A stretch of DNA of 63,001 bases, the filler included, from Basidiobolus ranarum (lineage: Eukaryota), in assembly GCA_040143965.1 (NCBI GenBank). It is 4 parts of 4 records of this genome, joined end to end, with 100 filler letters (N's around TTAATTAATTAA, not from the genome) between each part and the next. Parts side by side here need not be neighbours in the genome. Positions count along the whole stretch, not along the records: positions 47,413 to 63,001 come from JASJQH010007248.1; 3 more parts are not named here. One strand, given 5' to 3'. Below are positions 6,885-54,319 of the stretch, in pieces (position 1 is the first letter of the stretch; each line of letters opens with the position of its first letter). The position numbers and the translations under genes are program-made. A model generated the notes under the pieces. It did no database searches. It had not been told where the DNA came from and worked only from the letters and a program-made list of their open reading frames with translations.

Positions 6885-9864
<2,980 letters not shown>

Positions 9865-49125: not shown

Positions 49126-52081
49126 GATTAATAGTTGTTATTGGTGAAGAATCGTTAAGGGAATGTTATATGCGGTAAATACTAAGATGATAGAGGTATA
49201 CCACCATTTTTATATTAGAAAAAAAGTGCAATATGCTATTTCCCAGTTGAGGTCATGTATTGCTTACTGCTAAACCATCCCTTTTGCTTGAGAGACCCGA
49301 TTTCTGTGTGCATAGATGGCAGTTTATATTAGTGTGTGTTCAACAAAGATCGACCTTAATTATGTCATACCCCTATAAGATTTTGTGATGATATCACTAA
49401 ATTCCTGTATTTTTTCATACGTAATAAGGCATGTCTCCATACTTCTCACCAGTGCTATTACTTGAAAACTGTTGCAGGTGACGGAGTTAAGCATAGGACA
49501 TTCCATAGATGCTTTATAATGCTGTAGATCATAGTTTCCCTTTGGCAATGCACCGTATCTTCAAGGTGTAAAACAATCAATATGAAATTGATAATTATGA
49601 GAATTAGCAATACGTGTATTTTTAGCGTCCGAGTATTGAAATTCCATGCGGTATTCGATAGAATCTATAAAAATCGGAGTATTTTCGGTAACGGTTAAGC
49701 ATATTTCTACTTGATTGTGGTATTATGACTACAATAGTAATATTTTGATAGCACAGCCAAAGTGACTTCAATGCACTCATCGATTATTGTTTTGAATCTG
49801 ATACGAGTACATCAACAAAGAAGCATATGGCGTAACTCTAAATACACATGTATTTCCTGCATGCTTGCCACTAACATATTTGTATCTTTCCAATATAGGC
49901 AAGCGGGTATCTTACAATCCCCCTAAATATGGTACTTCATTTCTGATTCTGAACTAAATTAAAAAACGTCTATGTTACACATGTAAGATTTGTTGTTCTT
50001 TCAACTTTGGGATCAGAATTGACATTTTATTTCCTATCAAAACTAACACAATTATAATTGGCATCTTTGACTAGATTCGTACAATAGGTCTGTTGATACC
50101 TCCCAAGAGCATTTGGAACGTACCTCATTTATTACAAAAAAATTCTGGAGTTGCAGATCTTAAAGGATGAGCTGATAGTACTCCTACTTTTCACCCCAAT
50201 GATGGTGCTATTACTTGACCTTCTTTCGTAGATTGAAAACAGCAATGTCAACAGGAATTACCGTCATCAATGTTTTGACTATGATCACAAAGGCTGAAAC
50301 GAGTTTTAATAGATCTTAATGAGTGTAACTAGTTATAGTCGAGCATACTGGCAGAGTGATCCTGACTGTGATGGACCTGCTTATACGTTCACTAGTCAAG
50401 GAGCTACGCCTGGAAGATGTACCAAAGAGAGTACAATAGTGCTAGTGATAATGATATTATTGTATGGTACTAACAATCGGGTAACCTAAATAAGTACTAC
50501 TACGAAATGGTGAGGAGTATAAATCTAGGAGATATGGGCTAAGATACATAGTGGTAAATTGATACTTGTATAGTTATCGTAGTCCCAAAAGATTGTCTTA
50601 TCGGTATTAAGACCATTGAAGAAGCTGAAGTTCTAAATTTTGATTGTACGAATTATGGATTGGTACAAGCATTGCGGCATATTTCAGATGATGGTCTTCT
50701 TAGTTACAAAGCTATGATTGCTGGTAAATATACCAAACTTCATTCTAATAAATATATCTTCCCTATGATATGGATAATGCCATATTGAATTCTGAGATTC
50801 AGTTACAACTGATAATAATGTTATAAGTAGTTCTATATAAAATGTGTTAATGATATGCTCCCAGTAACGACTATATTGAAGCTTTTATGATGCTGTTCTA
50901 TTGAAACAACTCTAAAATTCAATTGGACTGTCATTGTTTCTTACTCCTGAGATGTTAAAGAGTAGGTCTACGAGTATTACTAATTAGAATTTAACTTACT
51001 ATATCATCAATATTTCAAGAAGTCCCCAATGAATAGCAAACATAAGCTTTTTATGTTGGTATTGCGATGGATCTCATCCTTGAAAATGGTGAACAACTTA
51101 CATTTTGTTGACAATGAAAATGCCATCGATAAAATTCTTTTCCAAGTTCGTTGTCTCCAGAATTTCAGCTTCAATTTATTATGGCATTTCCATTCCTAAT
51201 TTAGACAAAAATTCAATTGTGGACCTAATTTCCTGATTTACCGGATCTTATTTCATAACCTAGATGTTTCTACTTGGCCTAGTTTCGTTTCATCGCTTCT
51301 CTCAGATCGAACTTTGTTCAGCCTTTTTATATAGTTTTTGAACCCATCGTTCACTTTTCCCAACTCATGTTATCCTACCCGGTTTCATTCGTTTAAATTG
51401 ATCAGTTACTTTTGATTGGTGATCAGTGAGATCGTAACTCCACTGAAAAAAAGCATATTTTCTAGAGAAGTTGCGTAATATGGGTTTTAAAATATTTGCA
51501 ATTGTTTTAATGTGTGTATACATCAGTATTATTCCTGATACTCCTTGGAAATATAATTAACCTCAACAGTTAATATGTATTGGGATCTAAGCCACAAACT
51601 GCTTTCAATTGCTTCCTCCGTCATACGGAATTTGACCCATAAAAACTATACCGTATTAATACTGGATGGATACCATAAAAAAACAGGCACTGCTCAGTTT
51701 AATATGCTAACTAATGCTAGATAGCCATGGCACAACCTGGAAGAATTCTCGAAGTCATCAAAGGAGGATTTGTCTGAGTAGCTATAAATAGTTTTAATAT
51801 CATATTTCTCAACGATGTATCACCAAATATCATCGAATAGCTCTCGCCAGTTTTTTATCTACAGGTTGCCAGCTAATAGATGCCGGCGACAAGATCCGAA
51901 ATCTATTGCGAGCCTTTATCGCTCCGGGGGTTTTCGGTAAAATAGACGGCCAATCGTTGAAAATGTTACGTCCGATCAGTGACTCTTATCTTTTATTTAG
52001 AATCTATATCAAGATGGATCGGATCACGCTGTATGCATAAAGTCCATATCTTCTCAATTTGTCCACAAACTCTAGTCAACT

Positions 52082-52089
52082 TGAGTCAT
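52082..52089. promoter_or_regulatory. Putative Gcn4/CpcA (cross-pathway control) site TGAGTCAT upstream of CPA1
   Basis: Perfect TGASTCA about 490 bp upstream of the TATATAA at about 52573, with another TGACTC at 51980. CPA1/arg-2 is a known general-control target. Confidence 0.4.
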
Positions 52090-52703
52090 CTGCCTCAGGT
52101 TTACCTTCGTTTGAGCAAAATAGTAATCCAATATCATACAGGTGTCACATTAGTATTCCTATTAAGGAAACAGACCACTGCTTTTCAGCATCATGTGGAT
52201 GTCCCTTTTTCTCAAGTTGATATATTTGGAATATCCCGGTTCCTTGTCTGTTGATGGTCCAGTAATAAGTATTTGATGGGAAAATCCCACCAACACGAGT
52301 TAATTATACAATCTCAAACTAACTTGTATGGAAGTCAGCAACTATCTAATTTCCCTTATCGTCTTACAATACTGCCTATGCTGAGGTTATATCATTATAC
52401 ATATTCTCTTTAAACCTGTAGTTTCCAAACTTTATAATCATAAGTGCTTAATTGATGCAATCGGTGAAAATATTCAACAAATTATGTGTACAGCATTTCT
52501 AGGTCCTACCTGGTTTGCTCATTTCTATCTCATAATTGGTCATAGTAACTCGGGAACCCTTCAAATTTTCAATATATAATCTCGTTGTCTGCGACCTTTG
52601 TACAGTCGTCTATCGTTCCACACTTCTGACTTATCTCCCTGAATCACCTTCAGTCGCAAGCCGCGACTACTAAAAACACAAGTTACTAACCTTCCAGGTT
52701 TAC

Positions 52704-52864
52704 ATGTACTTTCACACCCAAGAAAAGAACTCATCTGACTACATCTCTGATCAAAGTAATATCTCTTTCTGTTCAAAGGCTCGAATATGGACCACCTACT
52801 GATATTTAATTCTAACCATTTACTCAATTCTGTAGTTTGGAAAGCTCTCAATCTAACCAACTAA
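52704..52864 (+). promoter_or_regulatory. Arginine attenuator peptide (AAP) uORF, spliced: 52704-52755 + 52836-52864, MYFHTQEKNSSDYISDQIWKALNLTN*
   Basis: Removing the GTAAT...CTAAC...TGTAG intron (52756-52835) joins SDYISDQ to IWKALN. This matches Neurospora AAP (QDYLSDHLWRALNA) and yeast (QDYISDHIWKTSSH). The uORF ends 132 nt before the CPA1 ATG. Confidence 0.93.
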
Positions 52865-52996
52865 ATCCAATCGAAATCTTACAAAAGCTGTTACTTTACA
52901 AATCAATCCTTCCGTCAAATTCCAATTTTTCAACGTCAATTCTCAAACAATCTACTTAACAAAACTACTTGAATATTATATATTTCATCAAAAACA

Positions 52997-54319
52997 ATGT
53001 CTTTCCTTACCTTCTCCAAGTCTACCCGCTCTCTCTTGAGTGGTCCCAAGATCGCCAGAAATTTGTTCGCAGTTCGTAATCTTGCTACTGTCTCGGATTC
53101 TCCTGTTCACTCTACTCCTTTTGTTACTCCTGCCAGTTCTTCTACTCCCTCTTTGGCCGCTTTGAAACTCAAGTCCGGTCAAATCTTTAAGGGTACTTCA
53201 TTTGGTGGCTCAAAATCTGCCTTCGGTGAAGCAGTATTTACCACCTCGGTAGTTGGATATCCTGAGTCTATGACTGATCCATCATATCGTGGCCAAATTC
53301 TTGTATTTACTCAACCACTTGTCGGAAACTATGGAGTTCCTGGAATCGCCAAGGATAAGCATGGTCTACTTAAATATTTTGAATCCGAGGCGATTCATTG
53401 CCGAGGTATCGTGGTTAGCGACTACGCTACCAAATATTCTCACTGGAACGCTGTTGAATCCCTTGGTGAGTGGTGTGCCCGTTCCAACATTCCTGCTATT
53501 AGTGGCGTTGATACCAGAGCAATCGTTCACATCCTTCGTGACCAAGGCTCCACCTTAGGTCAACTTGCTATTGGAGCTGAGGATATCGAAGCCACGACAA
53601 CTCAATTTGAAGATCCAAATCAGGGAAACCTTGTGTCAGAAGTGTCAACGAAGGTCCCTATTGAGTTCAACCCCGAAGGGGATTTGAAGATTGCAGTTGT
53701 GGATTGTGGTATCAAGCAAAACATCATTCGTTGTTTAGTATCTCGCGGTGCTCATGTTACTCTTTTGCCATGGGATTACGATTACAACCAGGAGGCAGGC
53801 AAATACGATGGTTTATTTATCTCCAATGGACCTGGATCTCCTAAAGTCCTTGGCCCAACTGTAAATAACCTTCGTAATGCTCTCAGTACTTTCAACAAGC
53901 CTATATTCGGTATTTGTATGGGTAATTTGGTTCTAGGACTTGCTGCAGGCTTAGATTCTTACAAATTGCGCTTCGGTAACCGTGGTCATAACCAGCCTGC
54001 TGTGAATGTGCTCAATGGTCAATGCGTGATCACATCTCAGAATCATGGTTATGCTCTTAAGGATGATGATTTGCCTTCTGGTTGGGGTAAATACTTTATC
54101 AATGCCAATGATGGTTCCAACGAGGGAATTCGCCATTTGACCAAGCCTATTCGTTCGGTGCAATTCCATCCTGAAGCTAAGGGCGGGCCACAAGATACTG
54201 AGTACCTATTCAACGAGTTCCTTGAAGAGGTTCGTGCTGACAAAGCCAAGAGATACGAAACCAATTTCTTGGCCGAGGAGTCATTTCCTGTTCAAAGAGA
54301 AACCGTTGCAGTGGCATAA
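52997..54319 (+). CDS. CPA1: Arginine-specific carbamoyl-phosphate synthetase small (glutaminase) subunit, mitochondrial precursor
   Basis: GEAVFTTSVVGYPESMTDPSYRGQIL, GVDTRA, FISNGPG, FGICMG, GNRGHNQP, TSQNHGYA, SVQFHPEAKGGP. The Ser/Arg-rich N-terminus resembles a mitochondrial presequence. Intronless. Confidence 0.97.
   Translation: MSFLTFSKSTRSLLSGPKIARNLFAVRNLATVSDSPVHSTPFVTPASSSTPSLAALKLKSGQIFKGTSFGGSKSAFGEAVFTTSVVGYPESMTDPSYRGQILVFTQPLVGNYGVPGIAKDKHGLLKYFESEAIHCRGIVVSDYATKYSHWNAVESLGEWCARSNIPAISGVDTRAIVHILRDQGSTLGQLAIGAEDIEATTTQFEDPNQGNLVSEVSTKVPIEFNPEGDLKIAVVDCGIKQNIIRCLVSRGAHVTLLPWDYDYNQEAGKYDGLFISNGPGSPKVLGPTVNNLRNALSTFNKPIFGICMGNLVLGLAAGLDSYKLRFGNRGHNQPAVNVLNGQCVITSQNHGYALKDDDLPSGWGKYFINANDGSNEGIRHLTKPIRSVQFHPEAKGGPQDTEYLFNEFLEEVRADKAKRYETNFLAEESFPVQRETVAVA

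Follow-up and report, generated by a model that had tools for sequence, protein, structure and literature searches.

Nascent-peptide control of the small-subunit gene of arginine-specific carbamoyl-phosphate synthetase is a textbook regulatory system of fungi. The arginine attenuator peptide (AAP) is the product of a small upstream open reading frame (uORF) in the leader of arg-2 in Neurospora crassa and of CPA1 in Saccharomyces cerevisiae. Trp19 is critical for AAP function, and the peptide works as an internal domain too. Spevak 2010 is said to be the main mutational study of the AAP, and Hood 2007 is reportedly a survey of fungal AAP uORFs and gene structure that may already cover uORF introns and early-diverging fungi. 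According to PMC7038982, the arginine response of the N. crassa AAP is abolished by the D12N substitution, and Asp12 contacts uL4 at the constriction of the ribosomal tunnel. Arrest by the AAP stops scanning and so provides feedback control of arginine synthesis, as PMC5587730 describes. In Cryptococcus, ribosomes occupy the uORF of the CPA1 homologue, expression of the main ORF is held down, and nonsense-mediated decay targets the mRNA, which rises five-fold in upf1-delta (PMC7049704). That paper cites Hood 2007 for cell-free tests of orthologous AAPs. In a limited literature search, we found no published AAP or uORF in Basidiobolus and no published AAP in early-diverging fungi.

Here we describe a candidate member of this family in Basidiobolus ranarum, lying in a window of 63,001 nucleotides, by which we mean the whole stretch of DNA that was analysed. 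From its sequence, we consider it likely that the leader of Basidiobolus CPA1 carries a real, spliced AAP uORF, the frame of which would be assembled by removing an ordinary 80-nt intron. Exon 1 (52704..52755, plus strand) starts with the ATG at 52704-52706 and comprises 17 codons (MYFHTQEKNSSDYISDQ) together with the first base (A, 52755) of codon 18; its scripted translation ends in DYISDQ. The predicted intron (52756..52835, plus strand) runs from GTAATA to TGTAG, a GT..AG pair proposed on the grounds of splice signals and homology. Direct reading places a CTAAC at 52812-52816, with 20 nt from the branch A to the acceptor G and no intervening AG. Exon 2 (52836..52864, plus strand) supplies the last two bases of codon 18 (Ile), followed by WKALNLTN and TAA; it reads tt tgg aaa ... 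aac taa, which direct reading and scripted translation both turn into IWKALNLTN followed by a stop. Joined at the predicted junction, the two exons would encode 26 residues with Asp at position 12 and Trp at position 19, the same seven-position spacing that defines Asp12 and Trp19 in N. crassa numbering. AAP uORFs are short (about 24-30 codons), stop a few residues past the Trp and are followed by a spacer free of AUG, and the spliced frame agrees with this description: it has 26 codons and 7 residues after Trp, and the spacer between its stop and the CPA1 start (52865..52996, plus strand, 132 nt) contains 0 ATG. The original prediction had described this uORF from its coordinates to its intron, branch site, C-terminal residues and spacer, and proved correct base for base on reading, ORF listing and scripted translation; the last of these also confirmed its placement of Asp12 and Trp19 in the spliced frame.

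Without splicing, the uORF frame has 32 codons, stops inside the intron at 52800-52802 and contains no Trp according to the ORF listing, so intron retention would indeed remove Trp19, as had been proposed. The only leader ATG besides the uORF start lies inside the intron at 52787 and opens a 25-codon frame that ends at the exon 2 stop. The uORF start itself has a weak context, gtttacATGt, with T at -3. Upstream of it, an ATG listing gave ten ATGs in 52000-52484, zero in 52485-52703, and the uORF start at 52704 as the next one. The ATG-free stretch (52485..52703, plus strand, 219 nt) is probably the promoter-proximal leader, and a TATA-like tatataa is found within it at 52573-52579. The leader is poor in ATG: at most one ATG occurs in just 2.2% of 2,508 stretches of 337 nt. 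Its G content is 10%, giving an expectation of 4.3 ATGs per 417 nt by base composition; because this low G content lowers the expectation, ATG scarcity can be regarded as a mild signal only.

The ORF at 52997..54319 on the plus strand encodes, in one exon, a protein of 440 aa with a basic N-terminal presequence, and corresponds to the CPA1/arg-2 orthologue, that is, the glutaminase (small) subunit of arginine-specific carbamoyl-phosphate synthetase. Pfam assigns CPSase_sm_chain (2.7e-45) and GATase (1.4e-47) to it, and A occupies position -3 in its start context, aaaacaATGt. Within Basidiobolus, it matches two B. meristosporus proteins and one B. ranarum protein, the three identities being 90%, 87% and 82%; the 90% match, from B. 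meristosporus, spans 100% of the length of CPA1 and is named carbamoyl-phosphate synthase small subunit. After Basidiobolus, the matches fall to about 65% identity and come from Mucoromycota and other early-diverging fungi, and a quick maximum-likelihood tree puts the protein inside the Basidiobolus clade with an SH-aLRT support of 100. The uORF is therefore in the leader of CPA1 by domains, by 90% identity and by tree grouping. Because CPA1 identity and the tree place the host in Basidiobolus, the earlier description of the host as an early-diverging fungus is right. B. meristosporus has two CPA1 paralogues (P0001 and P0003), which share 90% and 82% identity with the CPA1 of the window. An AAP fused N-terminally to annotated CPA1 proteins was found in none of 271 proteins, 120 CPA1 relatives among them.

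Since the original prediction could have picked any GT..AG pair, the same free choice was given to the controls, which allowed every GT..AG pair of 30-300 nt as well as unspliced frames on both strands. Scored by ungapped BLOSUM62 against a spliced AAP from a metagenomic CPA1 locus (L012, described below), the junction in the window reached 53, while 250 other 500-nt regions of the window reached a maximum of 38 (mean 26.7, sd 3.8). Exon 1 by itself scored 34, below the null maximum. A surrogate AAP profile was then built from three uORFs outside the window (L012, L007 and L001) and applied to all junction and unspliced peptides of the 63-kb window, 349,629 candidates in total. The junction 52756/52835 ranked 1, with 27.0 bits and an E value of 4.7e-5. 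Ranks 2 to 15 had at most 13.6 bits and E values of at least 0.75, all of them at the uORF locus and most consisting of exon 1 with another partner. Significant similarity to family members was thus obtained through the surrogate profile, of which L012 is a member positive for the Pfam family PF08252. Pfam itself returned 0 families at E<=10 for the two unspliced uORF frames searched separately, and the unspliced frame matched no sequence in the PDB. Two further features, the CTAAC branch signal and the scarcity of ATG, are independent of these comparisons and form no part of the similarity scores; CTAAC stands at branch distance before only 2.2% of 7,628 AG sites in the window. Taken with the Pfam domains of the downstream gene, the score of 53 and the first profile rank uphold the claim that an AAP-type uORF precedes a true CPA1/arg-2 orthologue.

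The predicted intron was also compared with other introns of the window. GT..AG pairs listed de novo at ORF junctions left too many ambiguities for local introns to be recognised, and these were mapped by homology or domain continuity instead, which gave a local set of eight: seven in a gene for an Rsp5-like HECT ligase, mapped against the full-length homologue P0123 (78% identical), and one in a forkhead gene, placed by Pfam domain continuity. The Rsp5-like introns, all on the minus strand, are at 9623-9544 (80 nt), 9437-9368 (70 nt), 9233-9173 (61 nt), 7788-7717 (72 nt), 7578-7509 (70 nt), 7387-7328 (60 nt) and 7222-7155 (68 nt), and the forkhead intron is at 60904-60841 (64 nt). Local introns are therefore 60-80 nt long and end in TAG or CAG. 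A branch-like CTAAC, CTGAC, TTAAC or ATAAC can be read in six of the eight; where it is CTAAC, in two introns, 19-23 nt separate the branch A from the AG. Their donors are GTAGGT (twice), GTAAGT (twice), GTAAGC, GTGGGT, GTATTG and GTACAG. The uORF intron agrees with this set in its length, its CTAAC-type branch and its TAG acceptor. Its donor, GTAATA, is weaker: it has no G at +5, where 6/8 local introns have one, and so belongs to the minority class (2/8).

Two observations were made in passing. The Rsp5-like HECT/WW ubiquitin ligase gene (about 6888-9666, minus strand) has an in-frame TGA at 8571-8573 inside a WW domain; the 78%-identical homologue has Arg at this position, and the remainder of the gene aligns well. 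The gene may be a pseudogene copy, or the TGA may stem from faulty sequencing or from a nonsense mutation of recent date. A perfect TACTAAC at 52684-52690, close before the uORF ATG, is followed by cttccAG (AG at 52696-52697), so that a leader intron might seem to end there. Use of this AG as an acceptor is unlikely, as the branch A would be only 8 nt from it, compared with about 19-23 nt locally. If AG 52721-52722 or 52726-52727 served as the acceptor for that TACTAAC, splicing would remove the start codon of the uORF.

Comparator loci were collected by scanning metagenomes with a CPA1 alignment. The 80 loci kept mostly resemble bacterial carA (39-58% identity; not individually checked). A six-frame motif scan of all 80 detected an AAP-like frame in L012 only. 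A junction-aware scan then recovered L007 and L001 as well. It covered the 69 loci that have 300 nt or more of upstream sequence, the other eleven lacking such sequence, and its next-highest score, 40, amounts to noise.

Exon 2 of L012 is a match to the Pfam family PF08252 Leader_CPA1 that covers positions 12-22 of the 23 in the profile, with 28.6 bits (cut-off 18.5) and an E value of 8.9e-7. The CPA1 proteins closest to that of L012, at 84-85% identity, come from Zasmidium and Salinomyces, both Dothideomycetes. The uORF of L012 has 24 codons and one 95-nt intron in codon 12, in phase 1. At 1002-1058 of this locus, the frame reading through the intron has its own ATG pair (MMARI...), and since this pair is in frame with exon 2, an unspliced L012 transcript would still encode the AAP core from Asp12. 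The CPA1 of L007 is closest to those of Chlorociboria and Mollisiaceae, both Helotiales, at about 90% identity. Its uORF likewise has 24 codons and two introns, one of 225 nt that separates codons 11 and 12 and one of 53 nt that falls within codon 16. The 13-nt micro-exon between the two introns (1107-1119) encodes D-Y-I-S plus one base, and the 225-nt first intron contains many ATGs.

L001 has early-diverging fungi as its nearest named relatives, at 53-59% CPA1 identity. In a quick tree, the L001 clade stands beside Paraphysoderma (support 85) and adjoins the chytrids (joint group 83), a weak placement. Its uORF (924-1135) has 30 codons; exon 1 ends in ...AEDYLADQ, a 119-nt phase-0 intron follows the CAG, and exon 2 starts with IWKSAASH. 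The lineage is GC-rich, and the 242-nt spacer of the locus holds a GTAAGT...CAG interval that may be a further leader intron.

Across the four fungal loci, window included, the AAP frame is interrupted by introns in every case, at five positions in all. Each of the other three has one or two introns inside the frame, and for this reason splicing dependence is not special to the gene in the window; the novelty that the original prediction saw in it is not supported. It had also singled out Ser11 and Gln17 as variant residues. Both do differ from the two Pezizomycotina AAPs (L012 and L007), but Gln17 is not unique, being common to the window and L001, and both have an intron at this Gln/Ile boundary, with a difference of one base in its position. 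Across the four loci, position 11 is occupied by Ser, Glu, Gln and Gln, and since it varies in this way it is not conserved. The residues after Trp number 7 in the window as against 5, 5 and 6 in the three comparators. At -3 of the uORF AUG, L001 has A and the other three loci (the window, L012 and L007) have T. For the main AUG this base is A in 4/4 loci, and the spacers lack ATG in 4/4 as well. Because the AAP frame exists only after splicing in all four loci, uORF searches based on genomic ORFs miss it.

These features can be assembled into a working model of the leader. Transcription would begin upstream of 52704, and splicing of 52755 to 52836, as expected from splice signals and homology, would yield the 26-codon uORF. 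Scanning ribosomes would initiate in part at the weak uORF AUG with its T at -3, and the remainder would leak past it to the CPA1 AUG with A at -3, which they would reach 132 nt further on with no AUG between. When arginine is high, the Asp12-Trp19 core of the nascent peptide is predicted to hold the ribosome that is making it, at the end of the uORF or close to it, a step modelled on N. crassa arg-2, yeast CPA1 and Cryptococcus by homology. The held ribosome would block scanning and lower CPA1 synthesis, and it would probably expose the mRNA to nonsense-mediated decay. The outcome would be feedback control of arginine synthesis. If it is how far the core lies from the peptidyl-transferase centre that fixes the geometry, the stall would fall two codons before the stop codon, and the 7-residue tail after Trp could shift or weaken it. 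The donor without a +5 G, Gln17 in place of His and Ser11 in place of Gln count against the AAP reading. The intron within the frame is most likely constitutive and without a regulatory role.

Other explanations of the locus place the doubt either in the peptide or in the intron. Since the peptide is short and neither half is significant alone (no Pfam match, and an exon 1 score under the null maximum), the frame might be the chance product of a convenient GT..AG pair, with neither an intron nor an AAP behind it; this can hardly be credited for a junction that is the best among all candidates with free splice pairs (E 4.7e-5), that sits exactly where the family is expected and that is accompanied by a CTAAC branch signal independent of the score. 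It is also conceivable that the uORF arose from an AAP and has since lost its arginine sensing, so that, given Gln17, Ser11 and two more residues in the tail, it is an ordinary uORF that represses mildly and constitutively. Positions 11 and 17 and the tail length are indeed unlike those of the two Pezizomycotina AAPs, but the core Asp-Tyr-Ile-Ser-Asp ... Ile-Trp-Lys-Ala is otherwise intact, and the splice signals have been kept, as have the frame and its AUG-free spacer. Moreover, Gln17 recurs in the distant L001 lineage, as expected of a tolerated or functional variant, and we consider loss of sensing unlikely.

Where the intron is concerned, splicing could itself be regulated, retention exchanging the AAP for the 32-codon uORF without Trp19 and adding the AUG at 52787, so that a second control layer would act independently of arginine. 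Retention would have exactly these coding effects, and the donor is weaker than most local donors, but the branch site and acceptor look normal, and the introns found at four different places of the AAP frame in the other three loci fit ordinary introns better; regulated splicing is accordingly very unlikely in our judgement. A related and distinctly unlikely scenario holds that the intron at the Gln17/Ile18 boundary is ancestral to Basidiobolus and the zoosporic lineage L001, and that its weak donor lets splicing vary between an arginine-sensing AAP and a retained form. If such a switch existed, the retained form would present two overlapping non-sensing uORFs, and arginine feedback would be coupled to a second signal.

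We therefore favour an AAP uORF with an ordinary intron as the explanation of this leader. On that reading, the arginine-sensing nascent-peptide switch of CPA1 would extend into Basidiobolus, a deep branch of the fungi. A Basidiobolus member of the family is genuine yet expected, and the finding leaves the understanding of the AAP system unchanged. What it contributes is a natural Gln17 variant that recurs in a second early-diverging lineage, and a possibly ancient intron at the Gln17/Ile18 boundary. The combination of Gln17 with a longer tail would also make this peptide a cheap and informative substrate for toeprinting.

Compared with described systems, the uORF stands closest to the AAPs of N. 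crassa arg-2 and S. cerevisiae CPA1 (PF08252), as it lies in the leader of the same gene and has equal Asp12-Trp19 spacing. The AUG-free spacer and the weak uAUG context are further points of resemblance, to which, by analogy, an arginine-induced stall may presumably be added. It differs from them in having seven residues after Trp rather than five, an intron in codon 18, and a host of Zoopagomycota grade, Basidiobolus. The N. crassa AAP has 24 codons according to PMC7038982 and PMC9604717, against 26 in the window. The uORF of the Cryptococcus CPA1 homologue (CND01050) is a conserved AAP outside Ascomycota with experimental support, as PMC7049704 reports, and its behaviour is what would be expected of the Basidiobolus uORF. 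The AAPs of L012 and L007 share with the window Asp12 and Trp19, a frame split by introns and T at -3, but they have 24 codons, introns in other positions, and His17 and Gln11 where the window has Gln17 and Ser11. The AAP of L001 differs in its 119-nt phase-0 intron, which lies one base upstream of the phase-1 site of the window, in its longer N-terminal part, in Ala in place of Ser15 and in A at -3 of the uAUG. Despite these differences, its exon 1 ends in D-Y-L-A-D-Q and its exon 2 starts with I-W-K, the same layout around Gln17 and Ile18 as in Basidiobolus.
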